A program made the translations under genes and the position numbers. From the UHGV virus genome UHGV-0208881: a stretch of 22,343 nt of DNA. The stretch is one strand, 5' to 3'. Every line of letters begins with the position of its first letter. Position 1 is the stretch's first letter. Shown here in pieces: positions 69-18,066 of this stretch. Under the pieces are notes generated by a model. That model saw nothing but the letters and a program-made list of their open reading frames with translations, had not been told where the DNA came from and did no database searches. The DNA comes from a virus.

Positions 69-2486
69 TTACAATGTAATGTTTTGCGGCATGTCTGTAT
101 TCGCCTTATTTGCTGCTGGGTACTGGCATGTAGCAGTCGAATTTGTTGTCGAGTTATCCCCGAACCACAATTTGTTCTGTGACGCTATCCCTGACACTGC
201 AGATCCAGAGCACTGAATGACGTTAATTGCATCCTTAAACATGTTGTCAGCAATTCTGATATTCTCATACTGTGAAAGCCATGGAGTTGCTCCATCATCT
301 ATCAGCATTGTTGCATTTCCTGCCGTTCCAGGGGTAGATGATGATATATAGTTTCTAGAAAATTCTGCATAACTAGTTCCTGTTGCTTTTGATACCCCCG
401 TTTGTAATTGATCAAACAAAAAACCGCCTATCTGGATGTTGCCTCTTACAATAAGGGACCTTGGTGTATATCCTGCCGGATGGAATTTAACAACTCGAGT
501 GCCACAATTATAGAACTTGTTTTCTATAAAAGAAGCAAGGCAATTTGATGAGCACTTAATCCTGATTAAAGATGGTCCATTTGTGAACTCATTTCCTGTT
601 AATGAAATAAAATTCATTAAACCGACATTAGTGGATGTCATAACATCAATGAATGGCATTAAGGAAAAACCTGAGTAATAAGAAACTTTGTTATCTATTA
701 CTCTTAGCTCTGTTGCTGCCGATCCTGTTGCAAAGTTGATATTTGAAATATTGCAATTAGATATTTTTATTCTATTAAAATTTCCAACAGCGGCAAAACC
801 AACTGATGATGTTGAGTCAGATCTAAGTGTTGCACCATTGAATTCAATGCCACTGTTTGATGATATGTTTGATGAATCTTGAGCAAACATGAATGTTGTT
901 CCAGTAGTGGCAATTACCCCGCCAATTATCTTAAATTCACAATTGCTCATTTGCGCGTAATTGGTCATGAACAATGGTGCTATCATAGTGTTATTATTAA
1001 GTGATATAATAGCAGACTCAATAACAACACCAGGAGTCCCAATTAACATAATGCGATCATAAGCTCTGATGGTGTTACCAGAAGCAACAAGAGATCGCAT
1101 CCACCCTGTATCTATCCAAGGAGTTGTTGATGTACCAGGTACAATATGAATGCCAACACCTTGAGTTTGTATATTATTTCCAGAGACAGTAATCTGCCCC
1201 CAAGGAATATTTCCGTTTGATCCTGGCATATCAAGAACAATTGCGTTATCTAAAACGTCAATATTGTTACCTATAATTGATAAACGTGTAAATCCACAGC
1301 GACCTTTTATACATCCATTGCCTCTGGTATTAACTCTATTCTTCAGTGAGTTTCCAATTACAGCGATATCTTCAACCAAAGCTCCCTCGCCTGTTGCATC
1401 CCATGTGGCTCCAGCGGTGTACACAGCGTGATCATACCATCCATCCATTGAATTGCCTTGGATGCGAATATTGCGCATATTGCCACCGATGCATGATCCA
1501 GGTGAGTCATAGAACACGCAATCAAATATCAGAACGCCACCGAGTGAGTATCGGTGATCAGACCAAGTGACATTAGGCACTTGTGTTTTAACCCCATCAG
1601 GGGTGTTGTCATATGGTTCAGCGTTTGTCGGACATACATCTATATATCGTGTTTGGTCAGGAATAGATGTACCTGAGCCAGAAGCACCAACCTCCATGTT
1701 TCTGGCATTTCCATCAAATCTTAGGCCGTGAATAGAGATGCTTCCAGTTGCTCCTGACGCAACCAGCAAAATATTTGAACGGTCCTGGTTAGGGTCAATA
1801 TCTGTAGTTGAACCTGTTACAAAATGTGACCGCTGACTTCTGACGAGCGTTGCCCCTCCATCACCCCAAATAGATGTGCATCCTGTCCATACGTTTACCT
1901 TTGCATCAAACACATAGTCTCCAGGAGGGAAAAATACACCACAACCTTTTTCTGCTGCCTCATTAACAGCGAGTTGAACAGATGCGTTGACGTATTTAGT
2001 TCTATCTCTTGCAAATACTGATGCCATTTCATCATCAGTCATATATTTTGTAGCCAGAATACTTGGTGTCTTCTCTACATATTCATCAAGTGTTCCATAT
2101 CGGGTGTTTACAAGAGAACCATTGCCATTAGCTAATTCAAGGCGCAACTGGTCAGGATCGTATTTCAGTACATTAGGATAATAGAACTGCTGTGCCCCGT
2201 ACGCATCATAAACAGCCATAGAATGGCCTTGCACAGTTACGAACTTGGCAATCTGCCCGTTATATACAGGATATCCTGCAGCGTTAATGATGATTGGTTG
2301 CGAAACAGGAACGTGAGAACCATCTTCGTTCTCTATATAAACCTGAATCTGGTTTTCAGGATTTACCGGGTCAGTGTCAATTTTACCGATATAAATTTTT
2401 CCATTGGCTACGGCTTTAAAAGAACGCGCCATAGTGAAGAGTTGCGAAGGCATACTCACTACAACATTGGCTGTAATGTCTGTCAT
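69..2486 (-). CDS. Tailspike protein: P22 gp9-like head-binding N-terminal domain (about 115 aa) fused to a different right-handed beta-helix (pectate-lyase-like) receptor-binding/glycanase domain
   Basis: 805-aa ORF. N-terminus [11 protein letters not shown]...VLKYDPDQ matches remembered P22 tailspike head-binding domain; remainder is rich in GN/IxGN repeats typical of beta-helix tailspikes and does not resemble the P22 endorhamnosidase body. Last gene of the operon. SD GGAG upstream of ATG. Confidence 0.85.
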
Positions 2487-2650
2487 TTAATTTGCTCCAG
2501 ACGTAGCAATGCGGAACAAGATGCAACTTGCCCGGCATTGCACTAATGTCAGTTATGATCTGTTAATTATGAGATGAGTCTATGCAAAGAGATCTGTTGA
2601 ATATTGCGTTCTACATATTTGGTTTTTGCACGTTCCTGGTGTTTGCGAAA

Positions 2651-5044
2651 CTATTCTGACAACGCATCAGACTTAGCGCCTTGGGTCAGCGCGTTAATGG
2701 CCTTTTGCGCCTGCTGCATGGCTTTCTCAAACGCTGTTGATCCGCGTGGGGTGTTTGCCATTCGGAGCATTGCATTTCTGAATGGCTCGCTCTCATAGGC
2801 GCGAGTAAGAAGTCCGTAGCTTACTGCTGCGCCAGTTGTTGCAGGGTTCATTGCCGTCCCATACCCGATAATGAACGGGATGGTTTGCTGGCCTGTGGGT
2901 GTTGTTACAGCCGCTTTTGCAGCCTGCTGCGTGGATTGAAGGTAGTTTTTCAATCCTTTCAGATAAGCGGCTTCCTGACCTTTAAATGTGATTCCAGTCT
3001 GGTTTTGCAGGATGTTAAGCTGTCGAAGGAACTGGTCAGGGGATCCGCCAGATTTCTCCATCGCCTTTCCAATGATGCCATTGCGCATTTGCGCCCTGCC
3101 AACACGACCAACTGAGTTATACAGAGTCTTAATTTCCGATTTGTTCTTGCTGAATAGCATGTTGTTGACAACTTCCGGCGTCAGGTCGCCTTTCATGAGA
3201 ACATTCTTCAGCCTGGTATTCTTTAGTTTCTCCGCTTCGTCAGCGTAGACGGCATTGGCCTGCTGATATTTACGGAGAGTATCGTTGCCAAGATTCTGAC
3301 CAATGGCACCATTGATATCTTCGGTCATCGCCTTGTAAACTCGCTGAATGGCGGCATCGGAACGGTTTGGTAACACTGGTCGCTCCCCCTTCACGTCCAT
3401 TCTGAACTGGCTGCGCAGGTCGCTTAATTGCTTCAAATCCAGATTTACCGGACCATCAGGGCCAGCATTGCGAACAAGCTCATCACGATAGGACTGAAGT
3501 TTTGAAATAGTCTCGCTATCAGCAACCTTACCAAGCTTCTGCAGGTTAGATATTTCTGTATCAATCTGCTGAATTGCTCGCGCAGGCTGAATGTTTACTC
3601 CAGCCATAGCATTCTGAACCTGCTCCAGTCGATTACCGGCTGCACGACGAATTCCTGATGTTTTCGCTTTAAGGCTGTCAATAACAACCGCTGGGTCATA
3701 CTCACCGAATTTATCAGCAAATCTCTGCACCAACTGGCTTCTCGCTTCCTGTTGCGTTGCTCTCATTCCGCTTGTGCCAGCCAGAGGGATATTTTCTGCT
3801 GTAGTCTGCGCCATTTTTCCGACGCGGGAAGTTGGTTGTAACAGGTCTGTGGTGTGAAGAGGAACTCCTTCACGCTCTGCAAATCTGATAGCCTGCTGCG
3901 CTTCTGGCGAGATAGCGCCACGAACGCCACGATAAGCAGCACCTAATCCACGTCCGGCAGCGTTAATAGCACCGCCAGCAAGTACACCAACGCCTAAATC
4001 GGTGGCGAGTGCTTCCGCATCATCTTTCGCACTATTTGCAGCAAGTGATCCAACTGCGTTTCCTGCTAGAAGGCGAGTTGCCCCCTGAGCAATTCGACCA
4101 GCAAGTGTTGGTGCCTGTGTTGCCGCTCTCTCAACGCCAGCAGGAGTGAGGTAAGGCAATGCTTCGGCAAATACCCTTCCCTCTGTCGTTTGTGGAGTCA
4201 GCGCGCCTTGCTGAAGGCCAAAGTCCTGCTCTAATCCCTGCGTTGTTACTCGTGGTGCTGGTTGATATGTACCATCGCCAATGCCGAGTTTACCGCCAGC
4301 CCAAGCCGCCGCGCTTGTTACAGCATCAGTGAGTTCAGCAGGTATGTTCGCTACGTTGATTCCTGCCTGTAGTAAGCCGCGCCCGGTTTCAGCAAGTCCA
4401 TTACCAAGGTCAGACATTATTCCGCCTTGCTGCTGAACAGGTTTCGGTGCGACAGAACTTACGGGTTGAGGTGGCTGCTGACTGGCTGCCTGCTGCTCAA
4501 TCTGAGCAAATGGATTATTTGGGTCTGACTGCACGCCTGATGCCGATACTTGTTCGGATGACTGTGCTTCCAGTTGTGCAAACGGGTTGTTAGGGTCTTG
4601 CTGAGGATGTACCTTTGCAGAGGTGGCGCGCTGTTCGACTGTTGAGTCTGTCACCGGGTCACCCGCCCATTGAGCAAAGCGATCATCAACGTAACCGCGG
4701 CCTTCAGGTCCTGGCGTATATTCACCACGCTTTGCCTTCATAACGTTGCCGGGACCGTCGTGATAAGCCTGAAGAGCGTCACGCCAGTTACCAAACTGCT
4801 GGTACATCTTTGCCAGATAGCGCGCGCCAGCGTCAGCCTGATATTCGGGGTTTTGCATTTGCTCATCGGTATAACCCATATCACGCCATGTCCCAGGCAT
4901 GACCTGAGTCAATCCTACAGCCCCGGCGGAGCTTACTGCGGCAGGGTTGTAAGAAGACTCCTTGGCACCCAGTGCAGTCATCAACCCTTCTGGCACACCG
5001 TAACGTGCGCCAGCCTGCTCTAACAAATCACGGTAATTAGCCAT
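2651..5044 (-). CDS. Ejection (injection) protein, P22 gp16 position, with N-terminal soluble lytic transglycosylase (SLT) domain
   Basis: 797-aa ORF immediately after the gp20-like gene. N-terminal motif AKESSYNPAAVSSAGAVGLTQVMPGTW fits the SLT family catalytic region (ES...GAxGLxQxMP). Followed by a Q/P/A-rich linker with a tandem repeat and a long C-terminal domain. Position matches the third ejection protein of P22-like phages. Confidence 0.8.
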   Translation of the reverse strand: MANYRDLLEQAGARYGVPEGLMTALGAKESSYNPAAVSSAGAVGLTQVMPGTWRDMGYTDEQMQNPEYQADAGARYLAKMYQQFGNWRDALQAYHDGPGNVMKAKRGEYTPGPEGRGYVDDRFAQWAGDPVTDSTVEQRATSAKVHPQQDPNNPFAQLEAQSSEQVSASGVQSDPNNPFAQIEQQAASQQPPQPVSSVAPKPVQQQGGIMSDLGNGLAETGRGLLQAGINVANIPAELTDAVTSAAAWAGGKLGIGDGTYQPAPRVTTQGLEQDFGLQQGALTPQTTEGRVFAEALPYLTPAGVERAATQAPTLAGRIAQGATRLLAGNAVGSLAANSAKDDAEALATDLGVGVLAGGAINAAGRGLGAAYRGVRGAISPEAQQAIRFAEREGVPLHTTDLLQPTSRVGKMAQTTAENIPLAGTSGMRATQQEARSQLVQRFADKFGEYDPAVVIDSLKAKTSGIRRAAGNRLEQVQNAMAGVNIQPARAIQQIDTEISNLQKLGKVADSETISKLQSYRDELVRNAGPDGPVNLDLKQLSDLRSQFRMDVKGERPVLPNRSDAAIQRVYKAMTEDINGAIGQNLGNDTLRKYQQANAVYADEAEKLKNTRLKNVLMKGDLTPEVVNNMLFSKNKSEIKTLYNSVGRVGRAQMRNGIIGKAMEKSGGSPDQFLRQLNILQNQTGITFKGQEAAYLKGLKNYLQSTQQAAKAAVTTPTGQQTIPFIIGYGTAMNPATTGAAVSYGLLTRAYESEPFRNAMLRMANTPRGSTAFEKAMQQAQKAINALTQGAKSDALSE
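4491..4612 (-). repeat. In-frame tandem repeat (two copies of about 75 bp / 25 aa, DPNNPFAQ(L/I)E.Q...) in the linker of the SLT-ejection protein
   Basis: Protein shows QDPNNPFAQLEAQSSEQVSASGVQS followed by DPNNPFAQIEQQAASQQPPQPVSS; the matching DNA repeats are visible on the plus strand near 4491-4526 and 4566-4602. Confidence 0.5.
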
Positions 5045-6382
5045 TTACTGCCCCAAAGATGGAAGATATCCGTAGCGATTAATGAAGTCGATTGACAGCT
5101 CGGGGTGCTGCTTCAGGTAATCTATAGAAGCCTGAGGCGCTTCCACTCGCTTGATACCGTTTTGCTGAACGTACTTACCAACCGCCTCATTACGCTTCTG
5201 GTTGAGCGTGTTCAGGATGACGCCAGCGTTGCGACGAAAGGACTCCTCGCTCTGCGAGTTCTGCAGCGAACCAACAGCCTGGTCGAGCTTTTTGCCCTCG
5301 GCATCAGAAAGTGCGCCCATGCCTCGCATGGCCTGAACCGCTGTCAGGTATGCTTGTGATTTAAAGGTATCAAGTCGTGCCTGAGTGTCTGCAGCCTGTG
5401 AGCCTGGAACGTTGGGGATTACTCCGCGTAAGCCTGTAATGCTCTTAAGTGAAGGAGAACTAACGATATCGTTCAGAGTGAACATGCTGGTTGTGAGGGT
5501 GTTGATGCCGTCTTTGTAGCCATCATTTAGCGCTTGCTGCTTCTGCTGCAACTGCTGGTTGTTGGCTGCTATGCGGCTCTGTATTTCCTGGCGCTTCAGG
5601 TCGTTAGTTTCTGCTGATAGCATCCGGTCAAGGCGCTTATTTTCGTTGTTAATGCGGTTTGTTTCTGCGTCCAGATTAATGCGCTGCTGACCTAAATTCG
5701 CCTGGATATCTTGTCCGCGCATTGTGATTGCCTGATTCCGAGCGGCGGTTTGCGAATCCAGATCCTGACCGCGCATGGTAACCTGGCGACCCTGCATTTT
5801 ATCCTGTAGGTCAAAGTATTTTTCGGGCCCGAGACTGTTCATCCCCAGGTGATCGACAAATTCGCCGAACTGCCGCGGGTTCTGTTGGTACATCTGAGCG
5901 ACGTCCTGAGGATTAACGCCAACACGAGCTAACTCACCGGCGTTGTTTTGCAGCCATGATTGCATTGCTTCTGGAGACGATGACGCAAGGCGAGCGCCAG
6001 CCGCTAAGGTGCCTATAGAATTGCGTTGGTCTTCGTCTGCCCACTTCATACCAGACTGAATCTTCTCTAATTGACGAGGATATTTGGTCATCAGATCTCG
6101 CACCTGCTGTCGATCACCGGACTGGATGGCTGCCGCATATTCTTTTTGGAATGCAGCATCCGCTTCCTGTTGCTTTGCGGCTTGATATGTTTGAGCGACA
6201 CTACCAAGTCCCTGCAACGCCTGAAGGCCGATGTTATTGCGACCTGAACGCTCCATTTCGTTGTTCTGGCGAATATAGGCCAACGCCTCACTTACATCAC
6301 TTGCCTTTGGCGCATTTGAGTTTTGCCCACCGATACCAGCAAGAAAACCGCCTGAGTTGATTCCTTGTTGCCAAGTAGCCAT
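5045..6382 (-). CDS. Ejection protein, P22 gp20-like
   Basis: 445-aa ORF in the conserved gp7-gp20-gp16 position; Q-rich coiled-coil-like sequence with an internal TMRGQD(L/I) repeat; start adjoins the stop of the downstream gene. Confidence 0.8.
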   Translation of the reverse strand: MATWQQGINSGGFLAGIGGQNSNAPKASDVSEALAYIRQNNEMERSGRNNIGLQALQGLGSVAQTYQAAKQQEADAAFQKEYAAAIQSGDRQQVRDLMTKYPRQLEKIQSGMKWADEDQRNSIGTLAAGARLASSSPEAMQSWLQNNAGELARVGVNPQDVAQMYQQNPRQFGEFVDHLGMNSLGPEKYFDLQDKMQGRQVTMRGQDLDSQTAARNQAITMRGQDIQANLGQQRINLDAETNRINNENKRLDRMLSAETNDLKRQEIQSRIAANNQQLQQKQQALNDGYKDGINTLTTSMFTLNDIVSSPSLKSITGLRGVIPNVPGSQAADTQARLDTFKSQAYLTAVQAMRGMGALSDAEGKKLDQAVGSLQNSQSEESFRRNAGVILNTLNQKRNEAVGKYVQQNGIKRVEAPQASIDYLKQHPELSIDFINRYGYLPSLGQ

Positions 6383-6391
6383 ATTCCCACC

Positions 6392-7066
6392 TTAAAACAA
6401 TGATCCAAGACCACCGATAATACCGCCACCAATAGCGCCAACAGCTGTACCTATTCCAGGCACCACAGAGCCAATCATCGCCCCTGATGCCGCACCGCTC
6501 ATGGCACCGCCCAAAGCTGATTGCAATCCTGATGGTCGGTTAGCATTCGCCGCAGATGCTGCCGCCTGCTGTTGATACAATTGGCTGACGTTGTTAGCGT
6601 AGTTCTGTCCGGCGTTTGCCTGACCTGTAAGAGCACCAAGGCCGATATTTGCCAGATTGTTGTAGTTGTTCATCTGACCTGACAGCCAGTTTTGACCGAG
6701 TGTAGGTGCGATTGCTGCCAGCTGGTTTCCGGTTGCTGTAGAGCCTAATCCACCCGTTGCCTCTGCTGCTGCCAGACTCTGATAGCGCGCCTGACCAGCA
6801 AGGTCTTTGTACTGCTGAGAGTTGTAATACTGGTTAAGAGCCTGACCTTGCCCCTGAAGAGAGGAAAGATTTTGCAACTGTGATACGTACTGCTGAGCGA
6901 GTGGCGTGAACGGTGCAAGGTTCTGCATGTTCGTTTGCCACATTTCACGCTGCAATTCGATGCCCTTTTCAGTTGCGCGTGCCTGGGCTTTTGAACCGCC
7001 ATCACTGCCACCTTTGCAGTAAACAGTTTTGCTGAGGTGCTTATTGGCAATCTGGAAAATTAACAT
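6392..7066 (-). CDS. Ejection protein, P22 gp7-like, glycine-rich hydrophobic C-terminus
   Basis: 224-aa ORF, AGGAG SD 7 nt upstream of ATG, C-terminus SGAASGAMIGSVVPGIGTAVGAIGGGIIGGLGSLF. Overlaps the 3' end of the gp14-like gene by 26 nt. Confidence 0.75.
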   Translation of the reverse strand: MLIFQIANKHLSKTVYCKGGSDGGSKAQARATEKGIELQREMWQTNMQNLAPFTPLAQQYVSQLQNLSSLQGQGQALNQYYNSQQYKDLAGQARYQSLAAAEATGGLGSTATGNQLAAIAPTLGQNWLSGQMNNYNNLANIGLGALTGQANAGQNYANNVSQLYQQQAAASAANANRPSGLQSALGGAMSGAASGAMIGSVVPGIGTAVGAIGGGIIGGLGSLF

Positions 7067-7520
7067 TCTTTAGCTCCTCGTATTTTGAGCGCGGTAACTG
7101 ATAAATCGTGATGCCTACAGGCTTTCCATTGCTGGTATAAGCATCATCAAGGTGACCAACACGGGTAGCGCCAAGCAAACGGATAATTGCCCGTCCGTAT
7201 TTCGTGGTGTCAGGAACCATGGTGATGCTGTTAAGGAATGGTGAGTTTTCGAGAAGCCATTTGCAGAATAATCGATGCCCTTGCAGTGCATATTCACCAC
7301 GGAATCCGGGGTCGTACACCGCATGGCATTCAACAACGCTATGCCAGAAGTTACGCACTTCATGAACTCCAGCCAGCACTAATCCTTCGTAGATGCCGAG
7401 ATATACCGCATCAGTCTTGATGTAGTATTTGTCTCCACTGTCTACGATATTTCCCGTGTTTGCCGGGTTGTTGAGGAATTCTGCAAGCTTCACCGGGTTA
7501 TCGATGAGCTTTATGTGCAT
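7041..7520 (-). CDS. Head/tail assembly protein, P22 gp14-like
   Basis: 159-aa ORF in the conserved position between the needle gene and the ejection-protein genes; start overlaps the upstream stop (TAATG). Confidence 0.75.
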   Translation of the reverse strand: MHIKLIDNPVKLAEFLNNPANTGNIVDSGDKYYIKTDAVYLGIYEGLVLAGVHEVRNFWHSVVECHAVYDPGFRGEYALQGHRLFCKWLLENSPFLNSITMVPDTTKYGRAIIRLLGATRVGHLDDAYTSNGKPVGITIYQLPRSKYEELKNVNFPDCQ

Positions 7521-17523: not shown

Positions 17524-18066
17524 TTAATTAGTGAGTCCGGGGATTATGGTTTGCCCGTGCTGTTCAAGGCGTTCAATTCTCGCCAGTAGCTGAGGCTTCT
17601 TAATTTTTCCCCAGCGATTAAGCAGTCGACCTGACATGCTGGCAACATCCTTCTCTTTCATGTACTCCAGCATTACGGCATTTCTCTCTTCTTCAAATTG
17701 ACGATGACCAACCTGAAGCATGGCGTACATCCAGTTAAATGCGTTGATGTAAGCAATTTTGATACGCATTGCTTCTTTTTTGGTGTAGGACATAACCAAA
17801 AGCATCAACCCATCCTTGCGGAGACGGTAGAATTTTTGCGGCTTACCATTCTGTAACTCATTGTTTTTATAGCAAAGCTCAAAGTTGAGCTTTGTATCAA
17901 ACTCAGGAGGGCAAGCTTCTATGGTTCGTTCAATGTCACGAACTACGTTCTTCGGCAGCTTTCCAAATGCTTTTGCCACCATAAAAGAATCTGTAACCGG
18001 ATCGTTGTTTGCCACAAAAATCAGATCTCGGAAATCAATGCCGTTAACGATAGTTGGATAATGCAT
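17524..18066 (-). CDS. rha: Rha-family phage regulatory protein (antirepressor-like)
   Basis: 180-aa ORF. Motifs VTDSFMVAKAFGK...NVVRDIE and KDGLMLLVMSYTKKEAMRIKIAYINAFNWM fit the phage pRha domain consensus as I remember it. Sits between Rz and terminase, as P22 Rha does. Confidence 0.8.
   Translation of the reverse strand: MHYPTIVNGIDFRDLIFVANNDPVTDSFMVAKAFGKLPKNVVRDIERTIEACPPEFDTKLNFELCYKNNELQNGKPQKFYRLRKDGLMLLVMSYTKKEAMRIKIAYINAFNWMYAMLQVGHRQFEEERNAVMLEYMKEKDVASMSGRLLNRWGKIKKPQLLARIERLEQHGQTIIPGLTN

Follow-up and report, generated by a model that had tools for sequence, protein, structure and literature searches.

A swappable lytic transglycosylase cassette on the gp16-type ejection protein of a P22-like podovirus

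The DNA analysed here, referred to throughout as the window, is a stretch of 22,343 nucleotides from the viral genome UHGV-0208881. It carries the gene order gp10-gp26-gp14-gp7-gp20-gp16-tailspike, as in P22, with each gene identified by Pfam and PHROG matches, and so the P22-like podovirus setting proposed in an earlier, sequence-only reading is borne out. That reading also named a third ejection protein of 797 aa, and this open reading frame (ORF) is confirmed on the minus strand as the third gene of the gp7-gp20-gp16 cluster, which lies between gene 14 and the tailspike gene and has the same internal order in P22, Sf6, HK620 and CUS-3. The ORF begins with an ATG that adjoins the TAA stop of the upstream gp20-like gene, has GGGG 7-10 nt upstream of this start, and encodes a protein matching the PHROG family phrog_770 ('DNA transfer protein') at aa 108-797 (E=4e-239). 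The neighboring gp20-like protein shares 86-88% identity with gp20 of Sf101, IME10 and Huey and 53% with Sf6 gp12. In the gp7-like gene the Pfam match begins at aa 18, and the mechanically called ORF probably begins upstream of the true start. A scan of the window for Rfam families and tRNAs found none. The features discussed below are as follows.

2651..5044, minus strand: gp16-type (third) ejection protein gene, 797 aa, stop codon 2651-2653 included (ORF list)
2654..4426, minus strand: Sf6-gp13-type gp16 body, aa 207-797 (homology to Sf6 gp13)
4427..4663, minus strand: conserved extension after the SLT domain, aa 128-206 (alignments)
4502..4525, minus strand: DPNNPFAQ copy 2, aa 174-181
4574..4597, minus strand: DPNNPFAQ copy 1, aa 150-157
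4664..5044, minus strand: N-terminal family-1 lytic transglycosylase (SLT/GH23) domain, aa 1-127 (Pfam, PDB sequence matches, AF2/Foldseek)
4958..4960, minus strand: codon of Glu29, the predicted catalytic acid of the ES motif (aligned to Slt70 E478 and T7 gp16 E37)
4427..5930, minus strand: mosaic block comprising the C-terminal two thirds of gene 20 and the SLT module of gene 16 (windowed DNA identity)
5045..6382, minus strand: gp20-like ejection protein (periplasmic tube protein), 445 aa (Pfam Inj_translocase, E=2.7e-61)
6392..7066, minus strand: gp7-like ejection protein (Pfam P22_gp7, E=5.3e-90)

The first 127 residues of the protein form an SLT domain. Pfam PF01464 matches aa 7-110 with E=2.9e-25 and 88.6 bits against a cut-off of 21.3, a result far beyond chance. 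The catalytic motif that had been picked out by eye, AKESSYNP...GAVGLTQVMP, is genuine: its Glu29 lines up with the catalytic Glu478 of Slt70 and Glu37 of T7 gp16, and the family motifs GLTQ (aa 44-47) and AYHDGPG (aa 93-99) follow. PDB sequence matches of the domain comprise Slt70, MltC, MltE and T7 gp16. The AlphaFold model (pLDDT >90 across aa 1 to about 110) has the goose-lysozyme-like all-helical fold of family-1 lytic transglycosylases, with Foldseek matches to Slt70 (E=1.9e-5), LtgA, MltE, MltC and T7 gp16, the first four at probability 1.00. Domain search, family alignment and structural model, three of the checks that had been suggested, all support an SLT domain with its catalytic Glu. 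The E. coli enzymes Slt70, MltE and MltC share fold, catalytic Glu and motifs with this domain but belong to the housekeeping machinery of the cell, carry signal peptides or lipoboxes as well as additional accessory domains, and are not virion proteins; no signal sequence was found in the 797-aa protein. When the N-terminal 206 aa were used as a query, most of the proteins retrieved were short cellular SLT proteins, and this search served as a domain alignment only.

In a 60-sequence alignment E29, S30, G44, Y94 and G97, the last two belonging to the AYxxG motif, are invariant, and no loss of the catalytic Glu was seen among the homologues inspected; the sequence-only reading had offered the lack of an SLT match in aa 1-130, or an unconserved Glu, as grounds for its rejection, and neither was observed. 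This conservation bears on the idea that the domain has been kept as a peptidoglycan-binding anchor or a spacer in the conduit that does not cut the wall. Related phages manage without the domain, and P22-type virions are reported to contain a different wall-degrading protein, gp4 (PMC5380687), a report which, together with the gp4 homologue encoded in the window, counts against a role of the SLT domain at entry. However, a domain needed for binding alone should lose its Glu in some lineages, and here E29-S30, GLTQ and AYHDGPG are all intact, which makes a purely structural role improbable.

The known functional parallel is T7 gp16 (PDB 7K5C, 7EYB, 9JYY), which likewise carries an N-terminal SLT domain on the largest podovirus ejection protein. 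The two domains share 28% identity over 130 aa, and the model superimposes on T7 gp16 (9jyy_I) with an rmsd of 3.1 Å over 133 columns in Foldseek. The remainder of the 1318-aa T7 protein is unrelated in sequence, with no detectable similarity past about aa 120; the BLASTP alignment ends at aa 119, and no homology was found to the 'molecular tape' (aa 157-228) or the C-terminal ~1100 aa. In addition, P22-like phages have no T7-type core stack (PMC8954989). The window protein thus works like T7 gp16-N, as far as its predicted activity goes, yet stands outside the T7 gp16 family.

Beyond the N-terminal module the protein is a typical member of the P22-like gp16 group. Its body (aa 208-797) is 96.6% identical to aa 76-665 of Sf6 gp13 and 35% identical to P22 gp16, and both of these proteins occupy the same operon position. 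The body is all-helical and has no strongly hydrophobic segment (top Kyte-Doolittle 19-mer 1.36); PF26808 is listed for all close homologues in precomputed Pfam annotation, and no PDB entry was recovered as a sequence homologue of the body. The full-length AlphaFold model, built from a 22-sequence alignment, has a mean pLDDT of 46 and a pTM of 0.29, and is therefore unfit for a fold search with the body, or for judging how the domain and the motifs described below relate to it.

The close match of the body to a virion ejection protein bears on when the domain might act. Phage lysis enzymes also have SLT domains, as matches to PHROG 'endolysin' families show, and the domain could in principle aid lysis or release late in infection rather than entry. 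Against this, the prophage encodes a holin, an endolysin and Rz in a separate cassette, the fusion to an ejection-protein body comes without a signal sequence, and the known analogue, T7 gp16, works at entry (PMC8954989); we consider late action very unlikely. It is also conceivable that a frameshift or assembly error joined a separate SLT gene to gene 16, and the annotation of Kosakonia phage Kc166B does split the SLT part and the body into two ORFs. Identical 797-aa ORFs, however, recur in many independent genomes (one cluster has 1295 member sequences) and in three phage isolates, and there is hardly any chance that the long ORF is such an artefact.

The SLT module is best understood as an exchangeable cassette. 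The gp16 homologues of P22 and Sf6 have short N-terminal modules of ~35-75 aa, and no SLT match was obtained in those of P22, HK620, CUS-3 or Sf6, in agreement with the view of the sequence-only reading that P22 gp16 lacks such a domain. In the window the short module of these four phages is replaced by a 206-aa cassette, consisting of the SLT domain and its extension, with junctions at nt 4427/4432. The mosaic block to which the cassette belongs is 99-100% identical at the DNA level in IME10, phiKp_30, Sf101 and Huey, and the tail of gp20 changes along with the type of gp16 N-module. In two of these phages the whole protein shows essentially no difference from that of the window: an unannotated ORF of IME10 (NC_019501, 31064-33454) is 98.7% identical over all 797 aa, and BEI45442 of Klebsiella phage phiKp_30, called hypothetical, is 93.7% identical over 797 aa, both within the same gene order. 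Sf101 gp13 (911 aa, 'transglycosylase') and Huey gp13 (875 aa) carry the same 206-aa module in the same place after gene 20, at 100% protein and 99-100% DNA identity, but on different bodies: the Huey body shares 98% identity with that of CUS-3 gp16, Sf101 has a third type, and the window has the Sf6 type. The cassette is accordingly found on at least three gp16 bodies.

The second part of the cassette, the extension after the SLT domain, contains a Q-R-A-T-S-A-K helix, two DPNNPFAQ motifs and a Q/P-rich spacer that runs up to the recombination junction. The sequence-only reading had described this region as a linker with tandem 25-aa DPNNPFAQ repeats at 4491-4612. Two copies do lie within that interval, but the repeated element is the 8-aa motif itself, with a period of 24 aa; the surrounding 24-aa units are identical at only 13/24 aa and 40/72 nt. 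Tandem Repeats Finder reported no DNA tandem repeat in 2500-5200, so the repeat exists at the peptide level only. Nor is this a linker of variable repeat number. A comparison of copy number among relatives, which had been proposed, showed both copies in every one of 108 full-length homologues, nine of which have point variants in them, and the extension is conserved as a whole.

Whether the motif pair matters in its own right is less clear. It may be a neutral duplication in a floppy linker, functionless on its own, an account that we find possible but rather unlikely. Low AF2 confidence over aa 128-235, where the model has short helices (134-145, 154-166, 178-186), and the Q/P-rich composition (16 Q and 11 P among the 79 residues of the extension) both favor it, as does the lack of any significant profile match to the T7 gp16 'tape' region. 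The constant presence of both copies while the residues between them vary among homologues argues the other way, as does the observation that the 8-codon cores are identical at 18/24 nt with all six differences synonymous. Moreover, the distantly related Murrayvirus, Skarprettervirus and Kosakonia phages have N-x-F-[AD]-Q-[FY] motifs on both sides of their SLT domain.

These phages belong to a wider set, comprising Murrayvirus (IME_EC2, Lumpael), Sortsnevirus (IME279), Skarprettervirus and Kosakonia phages, in which the third ejection protein also has an SLT domain (55-63% identical) at its N-terminal end, followed by an N-x-F-x-Q motif, with the same synteny as in the window. Their proteins differ in being about 1000 aa long with different bodies, in belonging to virulent phages, and in flanking the SLT domain with motif copies, an extra N-terminal one ahead of it and a single one behind it.

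Taken together, we estimate a probability of roughly 85% that the protein is a gp16-type ejection (pilot) protein of a P22-like temperate E. coli podovirus, with an intact SLT cassette that opens peptidoglycan at DNA entry. By homology with Sf6 gp13 and P22 gp16, it would be packaged in the head and would leave at infection, along with gp7 and gp20, by way of the portal-tail channel. In the periplasm, its predicted location, the SLT domain would then cut MurNAc-GlcNAc bonds by means of Glu29, an activity expected from its relatives, and the local opening of peptidoglycan would let a gp20/gp16 conduit reach the inner membrane. A wall-opening role at entry has been described for the N-terminal transglycosylase of T7 gp16 (PMC8954989), which is also covered in a review of virion-associated lysins (PMC5380687), and by analogy with T7 the activity may be useful mainly on highly cross-linked walls. 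The Sf6 and CUS-3 phages have the same bodies without the SLT domain, which is therefore dispensable for the ejection machinery. Activity of the domain in the periplasm would also constrain the topology of gp16.

A broader reading would make the cassette equivalent, in P22-like phages, to the complete T7 gp16-N unit, transglycosylase 'wings' and 'molecular tape' included, with the DPNNPFAQ pair as docking peptides for the gp20 periplasmic tube, the co-inherited gp20/gp16 block as the gp20-gp16 interface, and the gp16 N-terminus in the periplasm. This proposal we regard as doubtful. The presence of both motif copies in every homologue examined fits it, as do the variation of the gp20 tail with gp16 N-module type and a D-P-x-x-P-F-[AG]-[KQ]-like motif in the tape region of T7-like gp16. 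The linkage of gp20 and gp16 modules is equally well explained by the physical adjacency of the genes. The hhalign comparison of the P22-like extension with the T7-like tape came out negative (probability 0.2%, 3 aligned columns), and the loose P-F-A-[KQ] similarity is consequently a lead only.

The SLT-bearing gp16 is a known swappable module rather than a discovery, because near-identical proteins are already in the databases under a transglycosylase name, the RefSeq form being "lytic transglycosylase domain-containing protein". Any claim to novelty falls away in view of this naming, the near-identical proteins of IME10, phiKp_30 and many prophages, and the occurrence of the module on the Sf101 and Huey bodies. 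Full-text literature searches found no paper discussing a P22-like gp16 with an SLT or transglycosylase domain, although the type may already have been described. The same name is also attached to some records of Sf6-type gp13, suggesting a hidden SLT domain; Pfam and NCBIfam showed none in these proteins, and the name appears to have spread from SLT-bearing relatives.

The domain is carried by a minority of P22-like phages and prophages. Of 5426 complete E. coli genomes, 70 contain the 206-aa module, whereas the Sf6-type gp16 body is present near full length in 260. More broadly, the SLT-gp16 architecture is kept in over 100 protein clusters, which come from Escherichia, Cronobacter, Klebsiella aerogenes, Kosakonia and Enterobacter, in addition to the virulent phages above with an SLT domain on the gp16-position protein. 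The main value of these observations is a correction and an experimental handle, and the general picture of how P22-like phages work is unchanged. Since the cassette sits on bodies that also exist without it, the window or IME10 against Sf6, and Huey against CUS-3, form natural near-isogenic pairs, providing a handle on what a virion transglycosylase adds to podovirus entry.

The window corresponds to the late region of an E. coli prophage or phage that is P22-like (Lederbergvirus-type) and transcribed from the minus strand; about 75% of it is matched by prophages of complete E. coli genomes at an identity of roughly 96.5%. By Pfam or PHROG, the gene order is Q, holin, endolysin, Rz, small and large terminase, portal, coat, gp4, gp10, gp26 needle, gp14, gp7, gp20, the ejection-protein ORF and tailspike; between portal and coat, at the place of the scaffold gene, there is a 303-aa ORF.

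Features of the window discussed in the text
69-2486, minus strand, tailspike
2651-5044, minus strand, gp16-type ejection protein, 797 aa; its start codon (ATG) adjoins the stop of the gp20-like gene
7041-7520, minus strand, gene-14 homologue
17524-18066, minus strand, Rha-family regulator

The ejection protein opens with the lytic transglycosylase (SLT) domain that the sequence-only reading had proposed. Pfam places SLT (PF01464) at residues 7-110 (E=2.9e-25), and the best matches among PDB sequences are Slt70 (E=2e-11), MltC and MltE, with T7 gp16 weaker (E=6e-4). Besides this family match, a check for conservation of the catalytic glutamate was positive: Glu29 aligns with Slt70 Glu478 and T7 gp16 Glu37, their catalytic residues (E37 is named in PMC8954989), and E29, S30, G44, Y94 and G97 are invariant across a 60-sequence alignment. 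The remaining family-1 motifs are found at 44-47 (GLTQ) and 93-99 (AYHDGPG). An AlphaFold model of residues 1-300 has pLDDT >90 across residues 1 to about 110, and Foldseek groups it with Slt70, LtgA, MltE, MltC and T7 gp16 (for the last, 9jyy_I, rmsd 3.1 A over 133 columns at 27% identity). The domain is genuine and looks active.

The remainder of the protein is a gp16-type ejection protein of the usual kind. PHROG 770 ('DNA transfer protein') spans residues 108-797, and residues 208-797 share 96.6% identity with Sf6 gp13 residues 76-665 and 35% with P22 gp16. This body has no strongly hydrophobic segment and no sequence homologue among PDB sequences, and the full-length AlphaFold model is poor. 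Pfam gives no SLT match in the gp16 homologues of P22, HK620, CUS-3 and Sf6, in agreement with the sequence-only reading for P22 gp16, and NCBIfam gives none in Sf6 gp13 either. The 665-aa Sf6-type gp16 (Sf6 gp13; VSe13, L002:2776-4773) lacks SLT by Pfam and NCBIfam, and none is among the precomputed Pfam hits of two further 665-aa proteins of this type (P0236, P0238). GenBank and RefSeq nevertheless call SLT-less Sf6-type gp16 a 'lytic transglycosylase domain-containing protein', in clusters with 2252 and 1304 members; this label seems to have been carried over from SLT-bearing relatives. In three other homologues (P0232, P0235, P0240) the Sf6-type body forms an in-frame fusion with the N-terminus of gp26 needle, gp7 or NinG, most likely through deletions in decaying prophages.

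The SLT N-terminus is a swappable cassette. Residues 1-206 are 100% identical to the N-termini of gp13 from Sf101 (911 aa) and Huey (875 aa), and this identity breaks off sharply past ...KPVQQQ; in the DNA, homology to Sf101 and Huey extends up to window nt 4427, and homology to Sf6 starts at nt 4432. The Huey body is 98% identical to that of CUS-3 gp16, Sf101 has a third type and the window has the Sf6 type, so there are at least three bodies with this one cassette, and every one of them also occurs with a short, enzyme-free N-terminal module. The annotation of Kosakonia phage Kc166B (L015:3408-6558) has two ORFs instead of one, of 310 aa for the SLT-plus-motif part and of 734 aa for the gp16 body; either the fusion has split naturally or sequencing introduced a frameshift.

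The shared block begins some 450 nt inside gene 20 and runs to the junction; over this length the window, IME10, phiKp_30, Sf101 and Huey are 99-100% identical in DNA (Sf101 95-100%), whereas the start of gene 20 reaches only 50-80% in the same phages. The extreme C-terminal tail of gp20 covaries with the type of gp16 N-module (window 5045-5930; gene 20 ends of L003, L011 and L012, loci from other phages): ...YLPSLGQ is paired with SLT, ...FSSLWGD with the MAKAWKD module (Sf6, HK620, CUS-3) and ...IKFTVE with the P22 module, while gp20 sequences outside the tail are very different between phages. Sf6 and HK620, both with MAKAWKD-type N-modules, have gp20 proteins only 8-44% identical over their last ~400 residues and yet a common ...FSSLWGD tail. 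A functional interface between gp20 tail and gp16 N-terminus is one explanation of this linkage, but gene adjacency alone can account for it.

The stretch following the SLT domain had been read as two tandem 25-aa repeats. What recurs is instead an 8-aa motif, DPNNPFAQ, at residues 150-157 and 174-181 (24-aa spacing); the whole 24-aa units are identical at 13/24 residues and 40/72 nucleotides, and TRF detects no repeat. Within the 8-codon core the copies differ at six positions, all six synonymous, which points to selection on the peptide. Both copies are present in 108/108 full-length SLT-bearing homologues from Escherichia, Cronobacter, Klebsiella aerogenes, Kosakonia and Enterobacter, nine with point variants (e.g., Q-to-H), and residues between them are variable; the proposed comparison of copy number thus revealed no variation. 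The synteny extends to distant relatives that are virulent (Murrayvirus IME_EC2 and Lumpael, Sortsnevirus IME279, Skarpretter, and Kosakonia phages Kc259 and Kc166B); their proteins have N-x-F-[AD]-Q-[FY] at the extreme N-terminus and again after SLT, as in IME_EC2 (MANIFDQF, GGNVFDQF) and Kc259 (MANPFAQF, SNNPFAQF). In the AlphaFold model a short, low-confidence helix begins at the Phe of each DPNNPFAQ motif. For this stretch, 'conserved extension containing short linear motifs' is a more apt description than 'repeat linker'. Some Cronobacter/Klebsiella-type homologues (P0220, P0225, P0226) have an insert of ~95 aa right after the second motif (residues ~185-285; …GNIDIHNRPVVKNPDGSISTVRS…GREVLIPTV…); it has no match in Pfam or PHROG and is thus a possible additional cargo domain.

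A loosely similar motif lies in the 'molecular tape' region of T7-like gp16, which in T7 (residues 157-228) binds gp15 (PMC8954989): AKPFAKDFWE in T7 (residues 203-212), PNEPFAKTFWE in phiEap-1 and DPQQPFGKQYWE in Sarma103. MAFFT puts the window's second DPNNPFAQ motif against it; profile-profile comparison of the post-SLT regions of P22-like and T7-like proteins was not significant, and we treat kinship of the motifs as a lead only. Kayfunavirus gp16 keeps the tape region behind a different N-terminal domain: in Salmonella phage PRF-SP5 (L023:344-1763) a non-SLT domain (MATRGIRNHNIGNIR…) precedes a region homologous to T7 gp16 residues ~150-260, which implies that T7-like phages, too, can exchange the enzymatic head of gp16.

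From near-identity to Sf6 gp13, we infer that the protein would be packaged in the virion and ejected alongside gp7 and gp20 upon needle release. An active SLT domain would then cut glycan strands locally, allowing the conduit to cross the wall, with a benefit that is presumably conditional. The domain is evidently dispensable for the ejection machinery as such, since Sf6 and CUS-3 lack it, and the separate lysis cassette makes a role in lysis unlikely. The window also encodes a homologue of gp4, the reported virion lysin of P22 (PMC5380687).

Cassette DNA occurs in 70 of 5426 complete E. coli genomes, and the Sf6-type body is near full length in 260 of the 5426. IME10 has an unannotated ORF 98.7% identical to the 797-aa protein, and Klebsiella phage phiKp_30 a 'hypothetical protein' at 93.7%. 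The RefSeq name for SLT-bearing proteins is 'lytic transglycosylase domain-containing protein', and Sf101 has 'transglycosylase' in its GenBank entry, so the architecture is already in databases; a literature search found no paper discussing it, although the 2011 and 2016 Casjens surveys of P22-like virion genes, outside its scope, may cover it. The finding is correct but ordinary: virion-associated lysins of this kind are known, as is the protein that carries the domain, and the pairing of the two has been annotated before. Its value lies in the natural module swaps and conserved motifs.

Residues 1-113 of the tailspike are a P22-type head-binding domain; the receptor-binding part is matched in 0/5426 complete E. 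coli genomes (window nt 1-2145 uncovered), shows 38% identity to the tailspike 3 that the Ackermannviridae phages Vi01 and KEP4 carry, and has a GC content of ~37% versus ~50% in the remaining window. This receptor-binding module looks like a lateral acquisition. The gene-14 product (DUF2824, E=6e-64) is ~20% identical to gp14 of IME10, Sf6, Sf101, Huey and phiKp_30, compared with 65-88% for neighbouring genes, and is therefore of a different type. Taken from its mechanical start (7066), the gp7 ORF has a 26-nt overlap with gene 14; Pfam matches gp7 from residue 18 onwards. The Rha-family gene (Phage_pRha and ORF11CD3 domains) lies in a stretch of lower GC (0.44-0.46) that separates the lysis cassette from the small terminase gene. 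Such a position is typical of morons, which are accessory genes that have inserted among the essential genes of a phage.
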